Source: Acidimicrobiales bacterium (GTDB lineage Bacteria > Actinomycetota > Acidimicrobiia > Acidimicrobiales > UBA8190). Taken from it: a stretch of DNA of 64,000 nucleotides. Both the position numbers and the translations under genes were made by a program. The stretch lies in assembly GCA_035535015.1 (NCBI GenBank), contig DATLQU010000035.1:10614-74613 (forward strand). Reading direction: 5' to 3'. Positions within the stretch are counted from its first letter, which is position 1, and each line of letters starts with the position of its first letter. Under the pieces are notes generated by a model. That model did not search any database. It was not told the origin of the DNA and saw nothing but the letters and a program-made list of their open reading frames with translations. Below, in pieces: positions 1,264-64,000 of the stretch.

Positions 1264-3216
1264 ATGTCGGAATCAGACCCGGCCGCCGCGGGGATGCCTC
1301 TCTTGGTGATGGACGACGATTCCACTCGACCGGCGCCGACTCGGCCTTGGTGTCAACGTCTGCCGGCGTTCATCGCCAGGATCCGCTCACCGTTGCACAT
1401 CGCCACCCTGGACGGCGCGGTGATCGTGGCAAGCTATGGCGCGGCCGACCTGATCTTGGGACGATCGGGTGGCATCGTTTCGGACAGCGCCAATCTGCCG
1501 CTGATACTGGTAGCGGCTTTGGGCGCGCACCATCTCACCCTCCACCGGTTCGGCCTCTACCGCCGGATGTGGAGACACGCCGGGATTGTTGAAGCACGAG
1601 ACGTTGCGATGTCGTGCGCCGACGCCATGGCCCTCCTCGCCGTCATAGTCCTCGCCGGCCGAGCTGTCGGCGTTGGTCAGGTGAGCCCGGTTGTCATCGT
1701 TCTGGGCGCCTTGCTCACCACCCTGGGCGTCGAGATCGTCAGGTTCCGGACCCGCCTGGCCACATCGCGTCGTCGACACATCGCCACCGGCATGAGGGTA
1801 GCGGTGATCGGTTGCCGCGACGCCGGAGCTTCAGCGGTGAGGGACATGCTGATGAACCCCGGGGCAGGCCTCGTGCCCGTCGCCGTGTTCGACGACGATG
1901 GGAGGGCACACGGCCTTTCGCTTCTCGGTGTTCCCGTCGTGGGTCCGATCGCCGCCATCGCCGAAGCGAAGACGCGCTTCGGCATCGAGCAGGTGATCTT
2001 GGCCATCCCCTCTCCGTCGCCCACTCTGGTGCACCGGACGCTCTGTGCCACGGAGGCGGCGGGTCTCCCCATGAAGCTGCTCCCGGGTATACGAGAAATG
2101 GCTGGTGGCAAAGCCACGAGTCCCCTGCAACCCCCGCGTCAATTCCGCATCGAGGAACTCCTCGGTCGTGATCCGGTCACCACCGATCTTCAGGCCGTGC
2201 ACTCTTCGCTCAGAGGCAGTCGCGTGCTCATCTCGGGGGCAGGAGGCTCGATCGGCTCAGAGATCTCAAGGCAAGTTGCGCAGTTCGGACCTGATCTGAT
2301 CATCTTGTTGGACCGGGACGAAACCCACCTGCATGACGTGGCGTCGGTCCTGACCGGCGCCTCGGTGCAGGAGCTGGGCGACATTCGAGATCCTGATGTG
2401 GTGTTCGACGTCTTCCATCGGCACCGGCCTTCGGTCGTCTTCCACGCCGCCGCCCACAAGCATGTCCCGATCCTCGAAGCACACCCCATCGAGGCAGCTA
2501 AGACAAATGTCTTCGGAACACTCAACATGGTCGAAGCGGCAGCGGCACACGGAGTGTCACGCTTCGTCATGATCTCGACCGACAAGGCTGTCCGCCCGAC
2601 AAGTGTCATGGGCGCGGCCAAATTGGTCGGGGAACGGATCTTGCTGGCCCAGGAGCCGAGTGTCACGACGTTCTGTGCCGTCCGCTTCGGGAATGTGCTC
2701 GGAAGCCGCGGAAGTGTGATTCCCACCTTCGTCCGCCAGATCGCCGCCGGCGGTCCGGTGACGGTCACTGATCCGCTCATGACCCGGTTCTTCATGACCA
2801 TCGAGGAATCCGTCCAGCTGGTTCTCCAGGCCTCCCTGCTGGCAACGGGCGGGGACGTCTTTATGCTGGACATGGGGGAGCCGGTATCGATCTTGGACCT
2901 GGCCCAGCGCATGATCGCTCTTTCCGGATACCGAGTCGGGACCGAGATCGAGATCGAGTTCGTCGGAGGGCGCCCCGGAGAAAGATTCTCCGAGGAGCTC
3001 AGTGCCCCCGACGAGGAGATCCTACGGACCGCGCATCCGTCGATTCTGCGTCTCGCGCCACCAGCCGTGCACTCTGACATGTTGGCCAAAGACCTTCTCC
3101 GGCTCCAGGAGTCCGTGAGCATGCGCGACGTCACCCGTGTCCGCCACCTCCTTTTCGCGCTGGCAGGACCCGTTGCGCAGTTGGCCCGGTCGACAGTGTC
3201 GAAGGTCCCGGCCTGA
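1264..3216 (+). CDS. Membrane-anchored NDP-sugar 4,6-dehydratase/epimerase, CapD/WbpM/PglF family (polysaccharide biosynthesis)
   Basis: 650-aa ORF with hydrophobic N-terminal segments and two Rossmann-like regions (VAVIGCRDAGASAV; LISGAGGSIGSEISRQV). It carries the family hallmarks VFHAAAHKHVPILE and ISTDKAVRPTSVMGAAK. AAAGGAG lies upstream of the ATG. Confidence 0.85.
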   Translation: MSESDPAAAGMPLLVMDDDSTRPAPTRPWCQRLPAFIARIRSPLHIATLDGAVIVASYGAADLILGRSGGIVSDSANLPLILVAALGAHHLTLHRFGLYRRMWRHAGIVEARDVAMSCADAMALLAVIVLAGRAVGVGQVSPVVIVLGALLTTLGVEIVRFRTRLATSRRRHIATGMRVAVIGCRDAGASAVRDMLMNPGAGLVPVAVFDDDGRAHGLSLLGVPVVGPIAAIAEAKTRFGIEQVILAIPSPSPTLVHRTLCATEAAGLPMKLLPGIREMAGGKATSPLQPPRQFRIEELLGRDPVTTDLQAVHSSLRGSRVLISGAGGSIGSEISRQVAQFGPDLIILLDRDETHLHDVASVLTGASVQELGDIRDPDVVFDVFHRHRPSVVFHAAAHKHVPILEAHPIEAAKTNVFGTLNMVEAAAAHGVSRFVMISTDKAVRPTSVMGAAKLVGERILLAQEPSVTTFCAVRFGNVLGSRGSVIPTFVRQIAAGGPVTVTDPLMTRFFMTIEESVQLVLQASLLATGGDVFMLDMGEPVSILDLAQRMIALSGYRVGTEIEIEFVGGRPGERFSEELSAPDEEILRTAHPSILRLAPPAVHSDMLAKDLLRLQESVSMRDVTRVRHLLFALAGPVAQLARSTVSKVPA

Positions 3217-3226
3217 CCGATCGAGT

Positions 3227-3364
3227 CTCGCCGCTCTCGGACTCGCCGCTCTCGCGTTTCGCCGTTCTTGGACCACCAACTGCTCTCGGCCCACGAACTG
3301 CTGTCGGGCCTCGGACTGCTGTCGGGCCTCGGACTGCTCTCGGCCCACGAACTGCTGTCGGGCC
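3227..3364. repeat. Two adjacent tandem-repeat blocks directly after the capD-like stop: 15-nt x2, then 18-nt units in the order A-B-B-A-B(partial)
   Basis: 3227-3256: ctcgccgctctcgga / ctcgccgctctcgcg. 3280-3364: A=ctgctctcggcccacgaa, B=ctgctgtcgggcctcgga, arranged A B B A B'. Confidence 0.9.
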
Positions 3365-3571
3365 ACCACCGGCCGTCGAGCCTGACCTGTCACCTGGTTG
3401 GGCCTTGTCATCGGGTGAGAACCACGCAACCTTGGATTCCACTTCCCACTTCTGACGCTTTGTTGACTACGACGTGGATGCGTCGACGTTCTTCAGCCAA
3501 CGACGCTGATGGATAAGGCGAGGCCGCGCCCCACGCGCGCTCGTTGTCGCAGATTGATTACCAACATTTTG

Positions 3572-3601
3572 ATCAACCGTGACCTTCCGATCACGGTTGA
3601 T
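3572..3601. promoter_or_regulatory. Perfect 11-bp inverted repeat (atcaaccgtga N8 tcacggttgat) in a locally AT-richer stretch ~140 bp upstream of the Ig-repeat gene; operator or RNA hairpin candidate
   Basis: Arms at 3572-3582 and 3591-3601 are exact reverse complements. The flanking sequence is ttaccaacattttgatcaacc. Confidence 0.4.
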
Positions 3602-3743
3602 TCACCTTCTCTTCGTACGCTCCGCGACGTCAGTTCAACCCTTGGCGGAGGCCTCGCGGAGTGGGACAAGGAGGGGGCGGAACGAAAACCCCAGTGTAAG
3701 GGACAGAAATGCGTCCACTCATACCTGTTGGCAACTCGGAACC

Positions 3744-5165
3744 ATGAAAGGGAACTCGATGATCAAGTGGATCGGACGACCGATTCTTCTCAGTCTCGTC
3801 GCAGTGGCGAGCATTCTGACGACAGCGAACGTCGCCAGCGCGTCTACGCAGTTGCCCGTCGTGACTATCACGTCGAATCCTGCGACTCCTGTCGTAGGTC
3901 AATCTGTTCAGTACACGGTGACGGTGACCTACGACCCCGGTTTCGCGCAGAGCCCGACGGGAACGGCATCGTTCACTGACCTGCCGGCCTCGTCCCCACC
4001 GTGCACCTCTGCCACGCTGGTCCCTGCCACCCCGACGATTACTGCCGGAACGGCAATCGCGAGCTGCACCACGACGTACACCAAAGCGGAAAGCGGCAAT
4101 TTCATCGCCACTTACAGTGGCGACTCGAACTACACGGCAACCACTGGGACGCTGGTGCAGACAATCGGGGCGGGCGCGACCACGACATCCATCGCCTCAT
4201 CATCGTTGACGTCGGTCACGGGCCAGTCGATCGTCTTTACCGCCACCGTCAGCCCCACTATTGGCTCGGTTGTCCCGGCGGGTGCGGTGAGGTTTACCCA
4301 GACTGGTGCCGGTCCGGCCGTCCCGAGCGCCTGCAACCCGGCCCCCTTGGTGGCAGGGAAAGCAACCTGCACGGTGGTGCAGGGATTGAGTGCCTCTTCT
4401 TCGACCTCGCAGACCCTCAGCGCGGTCTACAACAATACCGATGGCAACTTCACCACCAGCTCTGACTTGACCGACGCCACGGTAGCGGCGCCAACACCAG
4501 CGACGACCCGAGTCCTCATCACGTCGTCCGCCAGCCCGGCAGTTTCAGGTCAGGCTCTCACCTTCACAGCCCAGGTTGCCCCGACATCACCAGGAAGCGG
4601 AACGCCGACGGGGACGGTGACATTCGCTGGCGCCACTTGCACCAACCCAAACGGATCTCCCACGCAGGTTCAGACGCTCAGCGGTGGGCTGGCAACATGC
4701 TCGGTGGCAGCGGGAACCTTCACGGTCATGAACCCTGTATCCATTACGGCGACGTACAACGGAGCTGGGGCAGTCAGTCCGTTTGTTGCGGCGTACCAGG
4801 CAAGTAGCCCGACTCCCTACACAGAGGCGGAGAATCAGAACACGACCAGCATCACCCTGATCGTCAACCCGAAGAAGGCGCATGTGAACAACCCGCTGTC
4901 GTTGACTGCGGTCATCGTGAGCCCACCTCCAGGATCGGGACAGATCACCGGTCTCGTGAGCTTCGTGGTCGTGGGCAAGCACAGCGGGCCTCTCAACTGC
5001 GCCAACTTGCCGTACAACTACGACTCCATCGCATCGGGCAATGAGGTGGAGTGCGATCTGCCAGCTCTGCCGGCGAGCGCCACGCCGATGAAGGTGTCGG
5101 TCAACTACTACGGTGACACCAATTACCTGGGTTCTTCGATTTCCAAGAAGATCCGGATTCACTAG
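3744..5165 (+). CDS. Secreted protein built of 4-5 tandem bacterial Ig-like repeats (Big_3-type); putative adhesin or surface protein
   Basis: I chose the internal ATG at 3744 because it gives a signal peptide, MKGNSMIKWIGRPILLSLVAVASILTTANVASA. A ~95-aa repeat recurs, ending in the motifs ATYSGDSNYTATTG, SAVYNNTDGNFTTSS, ITATYNGAG and VSVNYYGDTNYLGSS. The composition is Thr/Ser/Ala-rich. Confidence 0.75.
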   Translation: MKGNSMIKWIGRPILLSLVAVASILTTANVASASTQLPVVTITSNPATPVVGQSVQYTVTVTYDPGFAQSPTGTASFTDLPASSPPCTSATLVPATPTITAGTAIASCTTTYTKAESGNFIATYSGDSNYTATTGTLVQTIGAGATTTSIASSSLTSVTGQSIVFTATVSPTIGSVVPAGAVRFTQTGAGPAVPSACNPAPLVAGKATCTVVQGLSASSSTSQTLSAVYNNTDGNFTTSSDLTDATVAAPTPATTRVLITSSASPAVSGQALTFTAQVAPTSPGSGTPTGTVTFAGATCTNPNGSPTQVQTLSGGLATCSVAAGTFTVMNPVSITATYNGAGAVSPFVAAYQASSPTPYTEAENQNTTSITLIVNPKKAHVNNPLSLTAVIVSPPPGSGQITGLVSFVVVGKHSGPLNCANLPYNYDSIASGNEVECDLPALPASATPMKVSVNYYGDTNYLGSSISKKIRIH

Positions 5166-5415: not shown

Positions 5416-5955
5416 CTACCCCGACTCGGCCAGGGAAACGGAGTCGAGGGAGGCGATCAGATCACGGTCCCGCTCGTAGCTGAGCGCCCGTCGGGCGATG
5501 GTCAGCTCGAGCCAGCGCATCTCGTCGACCTCGTCGGACGGAGCGAATTCACCGTCCAGGACGTCCATGAGCCAGTAAGCGACCACCTTGAGCCGGTCCC
5601 GGCGATCGCGGTACTCGGTGTATCCGACAAACCGGTGCAGACGGCACCGTAGACCGGTCTCCTCCTGTACTTCTCGTAGCGCACAATCCTCGAAGGATTC
5701 GTCGGACGAGAGTTTCCCCTTGGGTAGCGACCAGTCGTCACGTCCTGGACGATGCACCACGGCCACTTCTCGGCGACCACCGGCGATATCACGCAGCACG
5801 ATGCCCCCGGCGGCGCGCACGACGTCCTGGCCGGCGCCCAGTCGTCGAAGCTTTGGTGCCGCCGCCCGAGCCATCAGAACCGACGCTACCGCCGGGCGGG
5901 GCCAATTCAGGGGATACCACTGACCAGGAGCGCTGTCGCCCTGGGACGTCACCAC
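5416..5955 (-). CDS. NUDIX hydrolase
   Basis: Nudix box: GKLSSDESFEDCALREVQEETGL (GX5EX7REVXEETG). The start could instead be the internal Met at 5874. Confidence 0.85.
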   Translation of the reverse strand: MVTSQGDSAPGQWYPLNWPRPAVASVLMARAAAPKLRRLGAGQDVVRAAGGIVLRDIAGGRREVAVVHRPGRDDWSLPKGKLSSDESFEDCALREVQEETGLRCRLHRFVGYTEYRDRRDRLKVVAYWLMDVLDGEFAPSDEVDEMRWLELTIARRALSYERDRDLIASLDSVSLAESG

Positions 5956-5977
5956 CGGTGCCGAGTAGCCTCATGTT

Positions 5978-8047
5978 GTGCCCGAACGGGGGGCGAACCC
6001 AACACACGTCGAGGTGGAGTGGCAGCTCGACGCGCTCGATCTTCGACCGGTCGAGCGCTGGCTCGGGACCTTCCCGAGAGTCGTGCCCGGCACCGGCATC
6101 GGATCGACTCACGTCGTGACCGTGGAGACCCTGCCCGTCAAACGCACCGTCGACGTCTATCTCGACACCGAGGACTGGAGGATCGGCCGATCCGGATTCG
6201 TCCTTCGCATCCGCCACCATGCCGACCAGGGAGAGGTCACGCTGAAGGACACGGCGCCGGCCGTGGCCGGGCTGCGGCGTCGTCTCGAGGTGACCCAGCC
6301 GCTTCCGGCCGCCGGTCTGCACGACCTCGACCCCCAGGGTCCCGTGGGCCGGCGATTGCGGGCGCTGGCCGGTGACGCGCCACTGACCCATCTTCTCGAG
6401 ATCAGGACACGCCGCCGTCCGTACCTCCTGCACGCAGCGGAGGAACGCCTCGGTGAAATGGACCTCGACGACACCATCATCGTGGTGGGCGACGACGAGT
6501 ACCCGGTCCGGATGCGCCGGGTCGAACTGGAAGTCGACCCTCGATGGGTGGAACTACTCACACCCCTGGTCGATCAGCTCCGCCAGGAATGCGGTCTGCA
6601 ATCGGCCATCCTGTCGAAGTTCGAGGTCGGCCTCCTGGCCGCCGGTCTGCGCGTGCCCGAGACGCCCTACCTCGGTCCGACGACTCTTCCGGACACTCCC
6701 TCGGTCGGAACGGTGGCCTATACCGTGCTGCGCCGAAATCTCGGCTCGATGCTGGCCCACGAGGCCGGGACCCGCCTCGGGGAGGACATCGAGCAACTCC
6801 ACGACATGCGGGTGGCCACACGCCGGCTGCGCGCCGCGCTGGACCTGTTCGAAGGTGTCCTACCCGGTCACGCGCACCGACTCCACGATGAGCTCGGATG
6901 GCTGGCCGCTGAACTCGGGGCCGTCCGTGATCTCGACGTCCAGCTGGAGAGGCTGGAGCAGTGGCGCCACCAGCTGTCCGAGCAACAAGCGGTATCCCTG
7001 GGCGAGTTGGCCGATGTCCTCGAGCGGGAGCGCGACGGCGCTCGGCAGACCCTTCTCGCCAGTCTCGATTCGGCGCGCTACGAACGCCTTGTCTCCGAAT
7101 TCACGTCGATGCTGCAGGCCGGTCCGGACCAGGGACCCTCCCGGCTGGTGAAAGCGGCGCAGGCGCCGGCCGTAGCTGTCGTCCCGGGACTGATCCTGGG
7201 TCGGCACCGTTCTGCCGCCAACGCGGCCCGCCGAGCACGACGAAGCGGCGTCCCGGCGGACTTTCACCGTTTGCGGATCCGTTGCAAGCGTCTTCGCTAC
7301 GCGCTCGAGTTCGTGTCGGAGATCTACGAAGGCAAGACGCGGCCTTTCGTGAAGCACGTGGTCGGCCTGCAGGACTGTCTGGGCCTCATGCAGGACGGTC
7401 AGGTGGCGGCCGACCGGTTGCTCGCACTGGCCACCGCCGAGAACTCCGGGTTGTCTCCCGCCGCCGTCTTCGTCATGGGCGCGGTAGCCGAGCGCTACCG
7501 GCACGACGTCGAGCGGCTCGTCCAGACGCTCCCCGACCAGCTCCAGGCGGTGAAAGGCCGGCGGTGGCGCAAACTGAAGGCCCTGATGGAGCGCCGGAGG
7601 CTCGAGGCGGGCCCTTCCCAGAGCTGGTCCCCCCCTCCGTCCACCCCGGCCGACCAGCCGGCCGATCCCAGGGTTCCCGAGCGGATCCCTCCGACACCGT
7701 TTCCCCACGCCTCGCCCTCCCCCACCCATCCGGCCGTCACCTCCGACGACGATCCGGACTGGGACGACGAGTGCGGACCGGCACTGCGGTCGGTGCCCGT
7801 GGTCGCCGATGATGGCGACGAGCCCACCTTCCTCGACGGCCCTCGGCCCCCGGCCGCGGCCGCGGCCGCGCCCCCGATCGCCGATCCCCCGGGCGGCCGC
7901 AGGCGCAAGGAGCCTGTTTTCCTCCCGGCACCGCCTGTCGGGGGACGCCCGACGGCCGTGCGGCCGGTGCCGCACACGGAACCGCCAGCACCACACTCCG
8001 AGCCTTCGGGGGGCGGACAAGATCGGTCGTTCCCCGACCGGCCCTGA
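5978..8047 (+). CDS. CYTH-CHAD two-domain protein (triphosphate-tunnel domain plus polyphosphate-granule-associated CHAD domain) with a long Pro-rich C-terminal tail
   Basis: N-terminus VEVEWQLD...DVYLDTED...LRIR is CYTH-like. The CHAD hallmark is HDMRVATRRLRAALDLF, with a second copy FHRLRIRCKRLRYALEF. The last ~170 aa are low-complexity P/A/G-rich. GTG start. Confidence 0.8.
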   Translation: MPERGANPTHVEVEWQLDALDLRPVERWLGTFPRVVPGTGIGSTHVVTVETLPVKRTVDVYLDTEDWRIGRSGFVLRIRHHADQGEVTLKDTAPAVAGLRRRLEVTQPLPAAGLHDLDPQGPVGRRLRALAGDAPLTHLLEIRTRRRPYLLHAAEERLGEMDLDDTIIVVGDDEYPVRMRRVELEVDPRWVELLTPLVDQLRQECGLQSAILSKFEVGLLAAGLRVPETPYLGPTTLPDTPSVGTVAYTVLRRNLGSMLAHEAGTRLGEDIEQLHDMRVATRRLRAALDLFEGVLPGHAHRLHDELGWLAAELGAVRDLDVQLERLEQWRHQLSEQQAVSLGELADVLERERDGARQTLLASLDSARYERLVSEFTSMLQAGPDQGPSRLVKAAQAPAVAVVPGLILGRHRSAANAARRARRSGVPADFHRLRIRCKRLRYALEFVSEIYEGKTRPFVKHVVGLQDCLGLMQDGQVAADRLLALATAENSGLSPAAVFVMGAVAERYRHDVERLVQTLPDQLQAVKGRRWRKLKALMERRRLEAGPSQSWSPPPSTPADQPADPRVPERIPPTPFPHASPSPTHPAVTSDDDPDWDDECGPALRSVPVVADDGDEPTFLDGPRPPAAAAAAPPIADPPGGRRRKEPVFLPAPPVGGRPTAVRPVPHTEPPAPHSEPSGGGQDRSFPDRP

Positions 8048-10454: not shown

Positions 10455-11504
10455 ATGGGCACGTCCTGGCCGTCGTCGGAGCCTTCGTCGGCAGGCCGGG
10501 GGTCCTGGCCGGCCGAGCTGCTCGAGGTTTGGGAACGGTCGGTCACGGCCGAGTACGGGAGCTTGACCCGGACCGGCTCGCCCGTGACCGTGCCCACGAC
10601 CCCGTACGTCAGTGCGGACGGGCGCACCCTCGACGTATCGACGGGACTGACCTATCCGGCCAAAGCGGAGCGAGCCCGGCGTGACCCCCGTGTCTGCCTT
10701 CTCTTCGCCGACCCCGGGGGTTCGGGGCTCGACCATCCGGTCATGATCCTGGTGCAGGGACTGGCCACCGTGCGCGACGCCGACCTCCAGGCCAATACCG
10801 ACCGCTACATACGGCTCAGCAGGAGGAAGCTGCCCGAGGTGACGAAGGGCCAACCCAAGTTCGTGCTCCAAAGGATGGGGTGGTACTACGCCCGGATCTG
10901 GATCGAGATCACGCCCTTGCACCTGAGATGGTGGCCCAGCCGGCTGCTGGACGAGGAGGCGCAGTCCTGGCACGCCCCCGAGGGGACGGCAGCGCCTCTT
11001 TCTGATCCCGCGCCCACGGGCTCTCAACCGAAAGCCTGGTTGACGCCGCCGAAGTCGTGGCGCCGGGGGGTCGAAGAGCTCTGCACCCGGATGGCGCTGC
11101 AGGACCTGACCGTGGTCGATGCCAACGGCTTCCCGATGTGCGTCCCCGTGATCAGCACGCGCCTGGTCGACGACGGATTCGTCCTGCAGCTGGGCCGCGG
11201 GGTACCGACTCTTGCGGAGGGCCCCGCCTGTCTCACCATGCACGCGCATCCCGAGAAGTTCACGGGTCAGGAGAACCACACGTTCGTGGGCCGGGTGGTA
11301 CCCGAGGAGTGCGGAACCGACCATGGCGTGGTGGTCCGGATGCTGGTGGAGCGGGCGTTGGCCGACTGGAGCGTCGCCGGCAGCCGGGCCCAGTCGGCCA
11401 TCGGTTTCCTCCGCAAGGGCCGGCTCCTCGCACCCCGACTCCGCTCCGAAGCCGACAGGCGGTTCCAACCGGTGCCCACGGTGAGGTTTCCGGCGCGACC
11501 CTGA
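10455..11504 (+). CDS. Pyridoxamine-5'-phosphate-oxidase-like (FMN-binding split-barrel) family protein, apparently two-domain
   Basis: 349-aa ORF with normal coding composition. Segments such as GSPVTVPTTPYVSADGRTLDVSTGLTYPAKAERARRDPRVCLLFADP resemble PNPOx-like proteins. The start codon is uncertain. Confidence 0.45.
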   Translation: MGTSWPSSEPSSAGRGSWPAELLEVWERSVTAEYGSLTRTGSPVTVPTTPYVSADGRTLDVSTGLTYPAKAERARRDPRVCLLFADPGGSGLDHPVMILVQGLATVRDADLQANTDRYIRLSRRKLPEVTKGQPKFVLQRMGWYYARIWIEITPLHLRWWPSRLLDEEAQSWHAPEGTAAPLSDPAPTGSQPKAWLTPPKSWRRGVEELCTRMALQDLTVVDANGFPMCVPVISTRLVDDGFVLQLGRGVPTLAEGPACLTMHAHPEKFTGQENHTFVGRVVPEECGTDHGVVVRMLVERALADWSVAGSRAQSAIGFLRKGRLLAPRLRSEADRRFQPVPTVRFPARP

Positions 11505-58088: not shown

Positions 58089-58745
58089 GTGGTGATCGAT
58101 GACCTCGACCTGAGCTCGGCCTCGGTGTTCTTGGACTTCGACGGCACCATCTCGCTCGGCGACACCGGGGTCCATCTCCTGAACCGGCTGGCCGGTGATT
58201 CGTGGCGGGCCATCGAGGAGCTCTACGCCAGCGGAGAGATCGGCAGCCGCGAATGCATCACCCGGCAGTGGGCGCTGTTAGCCACCGAAGACGAGAGTCG
58301 ATTGCGCTCCGTGGCGGCCGAGATCCCCATCGACGACTACTTCGAGCCTCTGGTCGACGCCCTCCTCGATGCCGGCGCCGAGGTCTCCATCGTCTCGGAC
58401 GGATTCGGCTTCGTGGCGAGCGACGTCGGCGAGTCGATGGGCATCGCCGTGAAGACGGCCACCATCGACTGGGCCACCGGGGCCATCGCTTTCCCCGACG
58501 GCGACGAAACCTGTCTCTGCGCCCGCTGCGGGACCTGCAAGCAGGCGCCGTTGCGGGAGGCGGCGGGCCGGGGGCGGACGACCATCTTCGTGGGCGACGG
58601 CCTGAGCGACCAGCTGGCCGCGCCGGGCGCCGATCTTCTCTTCGCCACCGATCAGCTGGCCCGTTGGTGCGATCTCCAGAACATTCCCTATCGACCGTTT
58701 CTCTCTCTGGGGGAGGTGGCTGCCGCCCTCGGGCTGCTCGGCTGA
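58089..58745 (+). CDS. HAD-superfamily phosphatase (subfamily IB, MtnX-like with Cys cluster)
   Basis: Motif I FLDFDGTIS, plus IVSDG, CLCARCGTCK and FVGDGLSD. Confidence 0.75.
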   Translation: MVIDDLDLSSASVFLDFDGTISLGDTGVHLLNRLAGDSWRAIEELYASGEIGSRECITRQWALLATEDESRLRSVAAEIPIDDYFEPLVDALLDAGAEVSIVSDGFGFVASDVGESMGIAVKTATIDWATGAIAFPDGDETCLCARCGTCKQAPLREAAGRGRTTIFVGDGLSDQLAAPGADLLFATDQLARWCDLQNIPYRPFLSLGEVAAALGLLG

Positions 58746-59816: not shown

Positions 59817-60863
59817 ATGCTGGCACGGATCACTACATTCGCGGTGGTGGACCCCGTCGTCGCCCTCCGCCGCGTCGCCTATCTGCTCGAAGCCGAAGGC
59901 GCCGCCACCTACAAGGTCCGTGCCTTCCGCCGGGCGGCCCAGACGCTCTCGGCCGAGGGGCCGGCGCGGATCGAAGAGCTGGCCCGGTCGAAGCGACTGA
60001 CCGCTCTCCCGGGCATCGGCGACAGCACGGCCGCCGTCATCACCGAGGCTCTGGCCGGCGACGAGCCGGCCTATCTCACCGATCTCGTTCAGCGCGCCCA
60101 GGCTCCGGCGTCGGGCTCGATCGGCGCCCTGCGGGCACGGCTACACGGCGACTGCCACAGCCACTCCGACTGGTCCGACGGCGGAAGCCCCATCCGGGAC
60201 ATGGCCGAGGCGGCCCGGGACCTCGGGCACGACTATCTCGCCCTGACCGACCACAGTCCCCGGCTCACCGTGGCCCACGGACTCAATCCCGAACGCCTGT
60301 GCCAGCAGCTGGACGTGGTGGCGGAGTTGAACGAGGAGCTGGCCCCGTTCCGGATCCTCACCGGCATCGAGGTCGACATCTTGGAAGACGGTCGCCTGGA
60401 TCAGGACGAATCGCTCCTGGCCCGCCTCGACGTGGTGGTGGCCAGCGTCCACTCCAAACTCAGCATGGACCCGGGGCCTATGACCAAACGCATGGTGGCG
60501 GCCATCGAGAGCCCTCACACCGACATCCTGGGTCACTGCACCGGTCGCAAGGTCGTGGGCCGGGGACGGCCCCCGTCCCGGTTCGACGCCGAACTCGTCT
60601 TCGCCACCTGCGCCCGGACGGGGACGGCCGTCGAGATCAACTCCCGCCCCGAACGCCGGGATCCTCCCGAGCCCCTGCTCCGCCAGGCCCTGGCCCTCGG
60701 ATGTCTGGTCTCCATCGACACCGACGCCCACGCGCCCGGACAACTGGAGTGGCTCAGCTACGGCTGTGCCCAGGCCGTCGAAGCCGATACACCCGACGAC
60801 CGGATCGTGAACGCCTGGCCGATGGAGCAGCTCCTGGCCTGGACGGCGAGTCATGCCGCCTGA
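59817..60863 (+). CDS. HhH-PHP protein (PolX-like N-terminal helix-hairpin-helix region fused to a PHP phosphoesterase domain; no polymerase core)
   Basis: YKVRAFRRAAQTL...LTALPGIGDSTAAVI, then the PHP motifs GDCHSHSDWSDG, LALTDHS, GIEVDI, SVH, ILGH and SIDTDAH. Confidence 0.8.
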   Translation: MLARITTFAVVDPVVALRRVAYLLEAEGAATYKVRAFRRAAQTLSAEGPARIEELARSKRLTALPGIGDSTAAVITEALAGDEPAYLTDLVQRAQAPASGSIGALRARLHGDCHSHSDWSDGGSPIRDMAEAARDLGHDYLALTDHSPRLTVAHGLNPERLCQQLDVVAELNEELAPFRILTGIEVDILEDGRLDQDESLLARLDVVVASVHSKLSMDPGPMTKRMVAAIESPHTDILGHCTGRKVVGRGRPPSRFDAELVFATCARTGTAVEINSRPERRDPPEPLLRQALALGCLVSIDTDAHAPGQLEWLSYGCAQAVEADTPDDRIVNAWPMEQLLAWTASHAA

Positions 60864-60881
60864 GCCGGGAGCGGGCTGAGG

Positions 60882-61775
60882 TCAGGTGACGGGGAGGCCC
60901 TGCGCCTCGAGACGCCCGTCGACCCATGTGGCCACGGCCGCCACCACGGCACCGGCCGTCTCTGAGAGCGCGGCGGCGTCGACGGGGAGGATCCGCACCT
61001 GCCCACTGGCGGGCCACAACCCGACCACCCGACACGGCGCCGACGACCCGCCCCGGGCCAACGCCGAGACGAGGGCCGGAAACCCGAGCGCCGAACGCCA
61101 GTCCGACGGCGGCAACCCTGATCCCACGACGAGAAGCGCCGGAGGCCCGTCCCCTCTGACCCTGACATCGGCCCGTCCCCGCAGCGTCAGTCGGCGCGTT
61201 CCGGGGCAGTCCCACCAGTCGTCTCCACCGCCGACGATCGGGGCAGGAGCGAACCGATCCCACTCGAGCGCCGTCCACACCTGCGTCGCCCAGGTCACGG
61301 CTTCGGCCTCGACCATGGCCCGCCCTCCGGCAGGCAGGCTCCGGTACCAGCCGGCCCACCACGGCGGACGCGTGGACGACGGATCACCACCATCGGCCAC
61401 GTCCTCGACTCCGGCGGCCAGGACCTCGGCCACGGCCGCGGCCGGTGTGGGCGACCACCCTCGGACGCAACGGGCCATCGCGTTCAGCCCGATAGCCCGG
61501 CGGCATACCAGGGGCGAAGGGGTGAACGGTCCCTCCACAGCGCGGCAACGCTCAGGATGCTCCCGGGCCATGTCGAACCGGTATCCATCGAGACGCAACC
61601 GCTCCCCCGTCGGCAGCTCTTCGACCAGAGCCACGAGGTCACCGGCCAGCCGATCCCGGAGTGCGGCCACATCTTCGGCGCCCACCGCATCGGCATCCGG
61701 GGTCAGCAGTGCCTCGGTCAACGCCCCGGCCCGGGGCAGGGCCAGGGACATCCCGGTCGCCGGGGGGGCGGTCAT
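60882..61775 (-). CDS. Hypothetical protein, apparent catalytically degenerate paralog of the upstream PD-(D/E)XK nuclease
   Basis: LTLRGRADVRVRGDGPPALLVVGSG aligns by eye with VVLSGVVDLAFGG...VCVVEIKSG of the upstream gene, but lacks the E-x-K. Its ATG overlaps the upstream stop (ATGA at 61772-61775). Confidence 0.5.
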   Translation of the reverse strand: MTAPPATGMSLALPRAGALTEALLTPDADAVGAEDVAALRDRLAGDLVALVEELPTGERLRLDGYRFDMAREHPERCRAVEGPFTPSPLVCRRAIGLNAMARCVRGWSPTPAAAVAEVLAAGVEDVADGGDPSSTRPPWWAGWYRSLPAGGRAMVEAEAVTWATQVWTALEWDRFAPAPIVGGGDDWWDCPGTRRLTLRGRADVRVRGDGPPALLVVGSGLPPSDWRSALGFPALVSALARGGSSAPCRVVGLWPASGQVRILPVDAAALSETAGAVVAAVATWVDGRLEAQGLPVT

Positions 61776-62812
61776 GGCCGGTCGTCCCCCTCGGTGCCGC
61801 CGGCACCACCGGTTTCGGTCTCGACCAGCAGGGAAAAGTCGTCATCGGTGGTGGCGTCGCCCGCCTGCCGGGGCACGTCGGTCCCGGCCCGCTCCTGGCC
61901 CGGTTCGCACCCGGGCAGCGCCGTGCACCACGCGCACAGACCGTTGGCCGTCCGGGCCGGTTCGCTCCCTGCGGCCAAGCGGCACAGTCGCCCGGTGCCG
62001 GCCAATACCCGCTGCAGAGCTCCGACCAGGACGTCATCGGTCACGGCCTCGACATCGAGCTCGCCCGTCCGCGTGTAGTAGGTGGCGATCCGGAACGGCG
62101 GCGCGCCGCTGCGCAGGGTTTCGAGCAGGGCATAGAAATGAAGATCGCCGCGGTGCTCGATCCGGCGCCGGCCCGATTTGATCTCGACGACACAGACCGA
62201 CGCCCGTTCTCCCGCCGGCCCGCCGAAAGCCAGGTCGACCACGCCACTCAGGACGACCCTTCCACCGACGAGTGGTACCACCAGCCTTTCCTGTGTCCGG
62301 GGCAACCAGCTCGGGCTGGGCACCGGCCAGCGGGCGACGACACCGCCGGCGTGCTCCGCCACCTCCCGGGCCAGGTCGCCGCGGCTGTCGGGAGTCATGG
62401 CGTCGAGGAAGCCGATGATGTCGCTGTCGCCGTCGACCCGGACGGCGCCGAGGGCGTCGGACCAGGGGTCGTCCAGCCGCCCCGTCGTCACCCACTGCCG
62501 GAACAGCGCATCGACCAGGCTGCCCCGGACCAGCTCCAGGGTCACGTTCCGGGGGGAGCTCCGCCGGGCCACCAGATGGGCCTCGCACATGAGCACGCCG
62601 GTCAGCGCCTCCTTGGTCACCCGCACGGACCCGCCGTCCACGGCCAGGTCGTCGGTCACACCGGCGAGCCCGTCCTCGAGCCAGTCCCGCAGCCCCCCGG
62701 CCAGCCCCGGGTCGACCGCCGGACGGGCCCTCCCCTGCCCCCGCAGCCGCTCGAGCAGAACGGCTCCTTCCGGGGGCCGGACGGCATCGGCGGTTGAGCT
62801 CGATCTGGGCAC
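61772..62812 (-). CDS. PD-(D/E)XK nuclease with Cas4/AddB-type Fe-S cysteine motif
   Basis: D...E-x-K core (GVVDLAF...VVEIKSG) with HFYAL following it. C-terminal C-x2-C-x5-C (CAWCTALPGC) plus an N-terminal Cys (LMCEAH). I trimmed the 722-aa track ORF to the GTG at 62812. The start is uncertain. Confidence 0.6.
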   Translation of the reverse strand: MPRSSSTADAVRPPEGAVLLERLRGQGRARPAVDPGLAGGLRDWLEDGLAGVTDDLAVDGGSVRVTKEALTGVLMCEAHLVARRSSPRNVTLELVRGSLVDALFRQWVTTGRLDDPWSDALGAVRVDGDSDIIGFLDAMTPDSRGDLAREVAEHAGGVVARWPVPSPSWLPRTQERLVVPLVGGRVVLSGVVDLAFGGPAGERASVCVVEIKSGRRRIEHRGDLHFYALLETLRSGAPPFRIATYYTRTGELDVEAVTDDVLVGALQRVLAGTGRLCRLAAGSEPARTANGLCAWCTALPGCEPGQERAGTDVPRQAGDATTDDDFSLLVETETGGAGGTEGDDRP

Positions 62813-62960
62813 GACCCCAGCTTGCCCGACGGCTGTGACGGCCACGGCCGAGACCGGGCCGGAGCCCTCGAGCCACCCCCGACGCCGCCCCCGGCCATTA
62901 GCCTCGATTCCCGATGCAGACGACCCGCAGCGCCGCCGCGGACCCGGGGATGGGGGCCCG

Positions 62961-63143
62961 ATGACCCCGGCCTTCGTCGTCGTCTTCGCCCTCTTCGTCC
63001 TGGCCCTCGGGGCGCTCGTCGTCATCTCCGTCCGTTGGGGCGTCCGCCGCGACCGCGCGGCGCGGGCCGTGGCGGCGGCGCGGCGCGAGGAAGCCTCGCG
63101 ACCGGGGCCGGGAACCCCACCCCCGGGGCCGGCCTCCCGCTGA
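62961..63143 (+). CDS. Small single-TM protein (60 aa)
   Basis: MTPAFVVVFALFVLALGALVVISVRWGVRRDRAAR... Its TGA overlaps the patatin ATG (TGATG). Confidence 0.4.
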   Translation: MTPAFVVVFALFVLALGALVVISVRWGVRRDRAARAVAAARREEASRPGPGTPPPGPASR

Positions 63144-64000
63144 TGGCCGACCCGCCGGCCGACGCGCCGCCACCGGCTCAGAGCGAGCAGGGCGTCTCGG
63201 CCGTTCACCCGACGGCGCTGCCCGGTGGTGTCTTTCCGGGCCCCGGAGCCCCGCGCCGGCGCTGGACCCGATCCCGCCACCTGAACGCCCGCTGGCGCCG
63301 GCCCCGGACCGCCTTCGTCTTCGCCGGTGGCGGGGCCCGCGGGGCCGCCCAGATCGGCATGCTCCAGGCTCTTTTGGAGCGGGGCATCTCGGCCGACGAC
63401 GTCTACGGCGCCTCCGTCGGGGCCATCAACGCCGCCGGCTTCGCCGGTGACCCCACCCCGGCCGGCATCGAGCGGATGGCCGAACTCTGGCGCCAGGTCA
63501 CCCGCGACGACATCTTCCCCCAGGGCCGGATCCCCGGCCCCTGGCGATTCCTGCAACAGCGCGAGGCCGTCCACTCGAACGAGGGCATCCGGCGGGTCAT
63601 CGAGAACGGCCTCACCTTCGAGCGGATCGAGAACGCCGCTGTCCATCTGGAGGTGGTGGCCACCTCGCTCACCGACGGCCGCACCCAGTGGTTCACCTAC
63701 GGCCCGGCGGCCGAAGCCATCCTGGCCTCCGCCGCCCTGCCCTCGCTGCTCCCGCCCGTCGAGATCGGCCGCGAGTCCTTCATCGACGGCGGCGTGGTCG
63801 ACAACGTCCCCATCGGCCGGGCCATCGTCCAGGGAGCCGAGCGCATCTTCGTCCTCCTCTGCGGTCCCCTCCGCTACACCCCCCACCGCTACCGTCGGCC
63901 GGTCGAAGCGGTCCTCACCGCCTTCTTCATCGCCGTCCACGCCAAGTTCGCCCGCGAACTCGAACGCCTGCCGGCGGGGGTGGAGGTCATCGTCTTCTCC
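63143..64000 (+). CDS. Patatin-like phospholipase (3' end outside the window)
   Basis: Own translation; absent from the track because it is open-ended. FVFAGGGARGAAQIGML (oxyanion GGGxRG), YGASVGAINA (GxSxG) and FIDGGVVDNVP (DGG). Confidence 0.85.
   Translation, partial: MADPPADAPPPAQSEQGVSAVHPTALPGGVFPGPGAPRRRWTRSRHLNARWRRPRTAFVFAGGGARGAAQIGMLQALLERGISADDVYGASVGAINAAGFAGDPTPAGIERMAELWRQVTRDDIFPQGRIPGPWRFLQQREAVHSNEGIRRVIENGLTFERIENAAVHLEVVATSLTDGRTQWFTYGPAAEAILASAALPSLLPPVEIGRESFIDGGVVDNVPIGRAIVQGAERIFVLLCGPLRYTPHRYRRPVEAVLTAFFIAVHAKFARELERLPAGVEVIVFS

Follow-up and report, generated by a model that had tools for sequence, protein, structure and literature searches.

Nucleases of the Cas4 family are common outside CRISPR (clustered regularly interspaced short palindromic repeats) loci, and most of them have no assigned function. 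The Cas4 family and the nuclease domains of AddB and AdnAB have by definition a D...(D/E)xK site surrounded by an "iron staple", a 4Fe-4S cluster bound by four cysteines, one N-terminal and three C-terminal (PMC12094033). The pfam12705 section of a published Cas4 family survey covers members found in phages, fused to UvrD or linked to helicases; no actinobacterial stand-alone lineage and no tandem dead partner appear in that section (PMC5704561), and a full-text literature search found none described. Here we study two adjacent genes, A and B, of an uncultured Acidimicrobiales bacterium from soil (assembly GCA_035535015.1). They lie in a stretch of 64,000 nucleotides, positions 10,614 to 74,613 of contig DATLQU010000035.1, which we will call the window. 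Gene A is predicted to code for a stand-alone Cas4-family (PF12705-type) PD-(D/E)XK nuclease of 346 amino acids, gene B for a catalytically dead paralog of 297 amino acids. In our opinion A is probably an Fe-S nuclease which bears the active site and B its dead tandem duplicate, both working as one unit. Both components are of known kinds: one is a Cas4-like nuclease of PF12705 type, the other a copy of it which has lost its activity.

We will start with the solo Cas4-like PF12705 nucleases, such as ACE1 (PDB 9IAB/9IAC) and SSO0001 (PDB 4IC1). They resemble A in the D...(D/E)xK core, in their stand-alone organization with about 300 amino acids and in the four cysteines, one of them N-terminal and the others in a C-terminal C-x2-C-x5-C group; both A and B also match them in structure. 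However A is not found beside cas or Argonaute genes and has about 55 additional conserved N-terminal residues, which distinguishes it from ACE1 and SSO0001. It also differs from the solo nucleases by having a dead paralog as a partner, and in the window its protein is below Pfam detection. The AdnAB and AddAB enzymes (PDB 6PPR, 3U4Q) have the same iron-staple arrangement, and the nuclease domain of AdnA is the best structural match of A. Their two subunits derive from paralogous chains and one module can be inactive, the helicase part of AddB, a feature which recalls our pair. In contrast, A and B have no helicase or ATPase domain, and the AdnAB-like genes of this genome are separate, on another contig. 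In RecBCD an active RecB-family nuclease domain is accompanied by RecC, which has a degenerate, dead copy of the same fold and uses it to handle single-stranded DNA. The combination of an active and a dead copy is similar to that of A and B, but RecC is a large multidomain protein and RecBCD has helicase motors and no Fe-S cluster. A duplicated nuclease fold is also found in XPF-ERCC1 and Mus81-Eme1, where one subunit is catalytic and the other one is DNA-binding or scaffolding: they are eukaryotic or archaeal enzymes from another family of nucleases and provide only an analogy. In the adaptation stage of type I-A CRISPR systems Cas4 and Csa1 are paralogous Cas4-family genes placed in one operon; neither of them is dispensable, and it has been suggested that they form a complex in which their roles are divided (PMC5704561). 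They are associated with CRISPR and Csa1 is not described in that paper as devoid of an active site, whereas A and B have no CRISPR context. Finally, the nucleocapsid protein of TTV1 comes from an inactivated Cas4-like nuclease, retained for a nucleic-acid-binding or structural role (PMC5704561), but it is viral, formed by a single gene and has no active partner copy.

Gene A is found on the minus strand, in positions 61772–62812. It starts with a GTG codon at 62812, as had been assumed in a preliminary description of this DNA, made from the sequence without database searches; this start coincides with the "MPR..." starts of the orthologs, and A is not part of a multi-domain helicase-nuclease. 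The open frame continues up to 63940, antisense to a small membrane-protein open reading frame (ORF) and to a patatin gene, both on the plus strand. Since the orthologs start at the GTG codon and the extension is antisense to these genes, we consider it an artefact of the high GC content. The catalytic core GVVDLAF...VCVVEIKSG (residues 190–214, positions 62171–62245) contains D193, E210 and K212. The putative cluster ligands are C76, in the sequence LMCEAH (codon in 62585–62587), and the C-terminal group C293-x2-C296-x5-C302 (CAWCTALPGC, 61907–61936). In 44 orthologs with 55–88% identity K67, C76, E77, D193, E210, K212, H220, D223, Y227, C293, C296 and C302 are invariant. The motifs of RecB type, which are E175 (or Q174), D193, E210-x-K212 and H220...Y227, are also invariant in these orthologs and retained in relatives which have a single copy of the gene. 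Both the catalytic residues and the cysteines are kept in about 40 far more distant single-copy relatives, which belong to other families and classes. Such conservation is far beyond chance. The core, the cysteine motif and the N-terminal cysteine had been noticed in the preliminary description, which proposed a Cas4/AddB-type Fe-S nuclease: all of them are present where they had been placed, and the proposal agrees with the motifs, the PF12705 matches of the single-copy relatives and the structural comparisons given below.

We have found 474 homologs of A, some of them annotated as "PD-(D/E)XK nuclease family protein [Acidimicrobiales]", and orthologs with 64–88% identity to A have a precomputed PF12705 hit. 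The single-copy relatives score 27–45 bits with PF12705 (PDDEXK_1), above its gathering cut-off of 22 bits, with matches that span positions 5–247 of the 247 in the profile. This is the case for a 318 amino acid protein of Iamia majanohamensis, annotated as "PD-(D/E)XK nuclease family protein", and for those of Iamia sp. SCSIO 61187 and Actinomarinicola tropica. The early impression that A belongs to no named family is not maintained. The AlphaFold model of A has a moderate quality, with a predicted local distance difference test (pLDDT) value of 70.8. When it was compared with the PDB using Foldseek, it matched the nuclease domain of AdnA (E 5e-5), ACE1, which is an Argonaute-associated Cas4 enzyme (1e-4), and Dna2 (1.4e-4); further targets were AddAB, type I-C Cas4 (5e-3), RecE and SSO0001. 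A profile search of PDB sequences with A gave no match. There is no helicase Pfam domain in A, no Cas1 (PF01867) match in its own genome, which is 91% complete, and no cas gene near the pair in the window and in the loci compared. The absence of a helicase domain and of a Cas1 match therefore places A among the solo PF12705-type Cas4-like proteins; it is neither a CRISPR Cas4 nor an AddB or AdnA subunit. By family A is, as predicted from its sequence, a stand-alone PD-(D/E)XK nuclease of Cas4/AddB/AdnA type. Its residues C76, C293, C296 and C302 would hold a 4Fe-4S cluster and the protein would have nuclease activity. The ratio of nonsynonymous to synonymous substitution rates (dN/dS) of A, determined with four relatives, is 0.17–0.30.

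Other nucleases with PDDEXK_1 domains are found in the same genome. Contig C26 has an AdnAB-like pair with UvrD domains and PDDEXK_1 (47–52 kb), contig C24 a fusion of UvrD and a PDDEXK_1 nuclease (7–10 kb) and contig C30 a stand-alone PDDEXK_1 protein of 281 amino acids (3.4–4.2 kb); A is therefore not the only enzyme of its kind in the cell. One more PDDEXK_1 nuclease is found inside a long frame in contig C43 (30.6–31.4 kb).

Gene B occupies positions 60882–61775 of the minus strand. Its 191 close homologs are all "hypothetical" and none of them has a Pfam hit. Searches of Pfam and NCBIfam with B itself gave nothing useful, and a profile search of PDB sequences gave no match. In a library of 1.84 billion proteins the B family amounts to 353 clusters when a 50% identity level is used. 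A direct comparison of A and B by BLASTP is not significant (E 0.54), and two narrow alignments compared with hhalign give a probability of only 12%. The homology becomes visible in broader alignments because the single-copy relatives of A serve as a bridge. When 12 B sequences were compared with 39 single-copy A sequences, hhalign gave a probability of 98.75% (E 1.4e-16, 243 columns). The B profile has full-length matches with the single-copy A orthologs of the loci which we fetched (E 1e-10 to 1e-13); when scanned over 300 genomes of the class, it gave in three of them an in-frame match to the A ortholog itself (E 3.5e-9, 1.3e-8 and 2.3e-7). The AlphaFold2 model of B has a high confidence (pLDDT 90.3). 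It shows helices and strands in the same order as the model of A, and its Foldseek targets are those of A: ACE1, AdnA, Dna2, SSO0001 Cas4 and AddB.

The degenerate core of B, LTLRGRADVRVRGDGPPALLVVGSG (residues 196–220, positions 61116–61190), retains D203, which is aligned with D193 of A and is either D or E in the orthologs. The E210-I-K212 stretch of A is aligned with V216-V217-G218. The loss of E-x-K reported in the preliminary description is real, but the replacement given there, V-G-S, was one position off. The absence of a cysteine cluster in B had been correctly seen: C91, C103 and C190 are scattered, there is no counterpart of C76 and the sequence stops short of the C-x2-C-x5-C segment. 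The dN/dS values of B, determined as for A, are 0.23–0.32, so that B is not decaying but under purifying selection. From alignments and models B is a true paralog of A, predicted to be catalytically dead and to have lost the cluster, and it is retained by selection; its description as an inactivated copy of A was right.

The B alignment, when scanned against species genomes, gave matches in 122 of them, and 80 were kept for the analysis of the locus. All 80 are metagenome-assembled genomes (MAGs) of uncultured Acidimicrobiales or Acidimicrobiaceae from soil, bog and palsa. A homolog of A is found directly upstream of B, on the same strand, in 79 of the 80 loci; the exception is a contig of 2.2 kb. 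In the window the stop codon of A and the start codon of B overlap by four nucleotides (ATGA, 61772–61775, minus strand), an overlap already reported in the preliminary description and suggestive of translational coupling. This overlap is possible in half of the related loci (39 of 78) and most of the others have a spacing within ±10 nt; it is retained in loci L013–L016. Furthermore A and B are fused in four clusters of the library, which contain single proteins with 548–801 amino acids (P0251, P0274, P0290 and P0376, from MAGs of Acidimicrobiales or Actinomycetota). They have an N-terminal A module (E 1e-33 to 1e-73) followed by a C-terminal B module (E 1e-37 to 1e-80). Two of these four clusters are present in several independent MAG records, and the fusions are therefore not accidents of assembly. 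The P0376 protein also has long low-complexity inserts. Natural fusions are classic evidence that the corresponding separate proteins interact.

It may be argued that A and B are independent, that B has acquired a role unrelated to that of A and has only the operon in common with it, given that it has diverged strongly and that its BLASTP comparison with A is not significant. The almost constant adjacency of the two genes, their conserved overlap or tight spacing and the existence of independent fusions make such an explanation improbable. As had been proposed before, A and B very probably act together, and the arrangement of their genes suggests a physical complex, a heterodimer. Both proteins would be translated from one messenger RNA through the ATGA overlap and would form a heterodimer having a single active site. 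In this heterodimer B would be the non-catalytic partner, which either binds and positions the nucleic-acid substrate or stabilises or regulates A. By analogy with the Cas4 family the substrate may be single-stranded or flap DNA.

The distribution of the two genes gives an indication of how the pair may have originated. Each of them is present in a single copy in its own genome. The A family is found in nearly every family of Acidimicrobiales sampled, with one copy per genome, and its presence extends to several further classes of the same phylum, where two families have it in 21 of 22 and in 15 of 19 genomes; in several large families it was not found. We fetched 54 loci around A orthologs and found an adjacent second paralog in only five families: that of the window (f1) and four others (f4, f5, f9 and f45). 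Elsewhere there is a single A gene, as in Iamia majanohamensis. In the maximum-likelihood tree one starred clade, with 14 rows, unites the upstream copies of exactly these five families, and every member of it has a tandem second copy. The B copies of f1 and f4 are also grouped in one clade (99*), and their A counterparts are likewise united in a single clade within the 14 rows. These groupings speak for a single duplication and point to an origin of the pair only once, inside one subclade of Acidimicrobiales.

The downstream copies are of two kinds. In f5, f9 and f45 all four cysteines are present and E-x-K is gone, an intermediate which is dead but still has the cluster residues; in f1 and f4 both E-x-K and the cysteines are absent. 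It follows that catalysis was lost first and the cluster later. The upstream copy of f5 has, after realignment, a canonical VEIKS. The ancestral state would be a single active gene, as it is still found in Iamia, Actinomarinicola and other classes of Actinomycetota. After duplication the downstream copy would have lost catalysis (the X-type copies of three families keep the cysteines) and then the cluster, as in B of the window; in several lineages the upstream copy would have degenerated as well, and in some of them the genes would have fused. The intermediate paralogs are located in L009 (about 5948–6862, plus strand, f9), L027 (about 3192–4007, minus strand, f5) and L044 (3081–4052, minus strand, f45).

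A different aspect of the pair becomes apparent when the active sites are classified in the 71 loci which have two clear ORFs. About 42 of them have a canonical A (C-D-E-K-Y-C-C-C) and a dead B, while a few have an A with D-E-K-Y but no cysteines. Several observations weigh against our interpretation. In about 20 of the 71 loci A has no cysteines and its E-x-K is replaced by G-x-S, D-x-T or A-x-R, and there is no second canonical copy of the family in the genomes with a degenerate A. The gene context indicates no pathway, either in the single-copy or in the pair-bearing loci. The A protein of the window has no match in Pfam at E<=1 and a scan of NCBIfam gave nothing useful. Its model is weak around the active site and at the C-terminus (pLDDT 51–59), as it should be expected from a model which does not contain the cluster. 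The preliminary description did not foresee that the "active" partner could be dead in sister lineages, and this fact weakens nuclease chemistry as the conserved core of the system. A picture with one active site may miss the main function of the pair.

These data can be explained in another way: the conserved function of A and B would not be catalysis, they would form a pseudo-nuclease complex with a nucleic-acid-binding or structural role, similar in this respect to the dead fold of RecC or to the nucleocapsid protein of TTV1, and the site which A retains in this genome would be an ancestral leftover or an accessory. The essential task of such a complex would be to bind or shape nucleic acid, or to sense through its fold, and not to cut. 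We consider this a tentative possibility, less probable than an active nuclease with a dead partner. Besides the degenerate A copies and the lack of a second canonical one, it is favoured by the fusions, since all four lineages are dead in both halves, with neither catalytic residues nor cysteines, and by the pair being still intact and adjacent in the degenerate lineages. Because the pair is kept where canonical catalysis is gone, a part of the role of the complex needs no nuclease site. On the other hand, the catalytic and cluster residues of A in the window lineage remain invariant in orthologs down to 55% identity, with the low dN/dS values given above, which indicates that catalysis is under selection there; the degenerate lineages may have changed their function. 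For this lineage an active nuclease with a non-catalytic partner is therefore the best reading. If the pseudo-nuclease explanation were true, we would have a stepwise series: a single active Fe-S nuclease, an active copy with a dead one which keeps its cluster, an active copy with a dead one without cluster, two dead copies and, finally, two fused dead copies. A and B would then have an undescribed housekeeping role in Acidimicrobiales. The family f4 (L008 and L021–L026) is formed by small genomes, 1.3–2.2 Mb, in which both members of the pair are devoid of cysteines and the upstream one has D-x-T in the place of E-x-K.

At this locus it can be followed, in a clean natural series, how a nuclease gene is duplicated and the product of one copy turns into a partner without catalysis; sister lineages have two copies which are dead and fused, yet subject to selection. 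Such a series offers a tractable model of how active/dead nuclease heterodimers such as XPF-ERCC1 or RecB-RecC originate, and it demonstrates that the nuclease fold has a selectable role beyond cutting.

We have also studied the genes around the pair. On one side there is a ligase/HAD/Prim-Pol/PHP group, whose HhH-PHP gene is convergent with B and separated from its end by 19 bases, so that this group is outside the transcription unit of A and B. The preliminary description had suggested that the pair could be an accessory of this end-joining or excision-repair island, acting in end resection or flap removal. The genes are indeed adjacent in the window, they have the same order in the closest relatives (L013, L014, L057, L059–L061 and L091), and Cas4-family enzymes cut single-stranded DNA and flaps (PMC12094033). 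However the island is a separate operon, and within 7 kb of the pair PHP is found in only 6 of the 80 genomes, Prim-Pol in 5 and ligase in 5, all with a B of at least 69% identity. In other members of the family of the window either a Cu amine oxidase or a histidine kinase stands in the position of the island, the Ku gene of this genome is on another contig (C60), and the single-copy relatives are found next to unrelated housekeeping genes. A neighbourhood shared by so few genomes gives no functional link; we have rejected the association with a non-homologous end-joining island, restricted as it is to the closest relatives, and give it little credence. The HAD-type phosphatase between ligase and Prim-Pol (58089–58745, plus strand) is present in only two of the five related loci which keep the ligase/Prim-Pol pair, and thus it is not a fixed part of the island. 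It is unsafe to annotate genes of the kind of A and B as active nucleases, or as partners of nearby repair genes, from their adjacency alone.

The conserved flank is on the opposite side, upstream of A: it has the divergent small membrane ORF and a patatin-like gene, present in at least 45 of the 80 loci, with a Nudix gene often found beyond. Apart from the patatin-like gene, the pair has no stable neighbour. In f4 the typA gene directly follows B, and PxpA-like genes are further neighbours in the pair-bearing genomes, besides patatin and Nudix. The single-copy relatives have as neighbours crotonase, PlsC-type acyltransferase, NAD epimerase, MFS transporter, Ppx/GppA and GNAT genes within the order, and VanW, glutamate synthase, PAS-SpoIIE, OtsA and citrate synthase genes in other classes.

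A defence-type nuclease had also been suggested. The pair could be a defence module, or one similar to a toxin-antitoxin system in which A is a toxic nuclease neutralised by its partner B; such an idea is attractive given the tight coupling of the two genes and the presence of PF12705 proteins in defence contexts (PMC5704561). In PADLOC A has a weak match with DruK (E 1.4e-5, 22 bits), which is confined to the generic nuclease core, while B has none; no partner genes of defence systems are found at the locus. The pattern is that of a vertical, single-copy and syntenic gene, which argues against a defence island: there is one copy per genome in nearly every sampled family of the order, patatin and Nudix are conserved on one side, and the trees of A and of B each group f1 with f4, so that they agree at the family level. 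Neither is a compositional break apparent in the A/B region, which has a GC content of 0.71–0.74. Dead/dead pairs and fusions would make no sense in a toxin-antitoxin system. With a match that is only generic and such a distribution, we have rejected this idea as very improbable.

A few minor features complete the description of the region. A scan for promoters and terminators in 60700–63300 found nothing. Between A and the patatin-like gene there is an ORF of 60 amino acids with one hydrophobic helix (MTPAFVVVFALFVLALGALVVISVRW...), in positions 62961–63143 of the plus strand, divergent from A; a small gene of 46–63 amino acids is called at the equivalent position in the related contigs L013 and L015. 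The patatin-like phospholipase gene (about 63140–64000, plus strand) is divergent from A and B and continues past the edge of the window. In L014 (6336–8001, plus strand), one of two near-identical metagenome contigs, A is split over two frames and the product called has 293 amino acids: it is probably a frameshift due to assembly.

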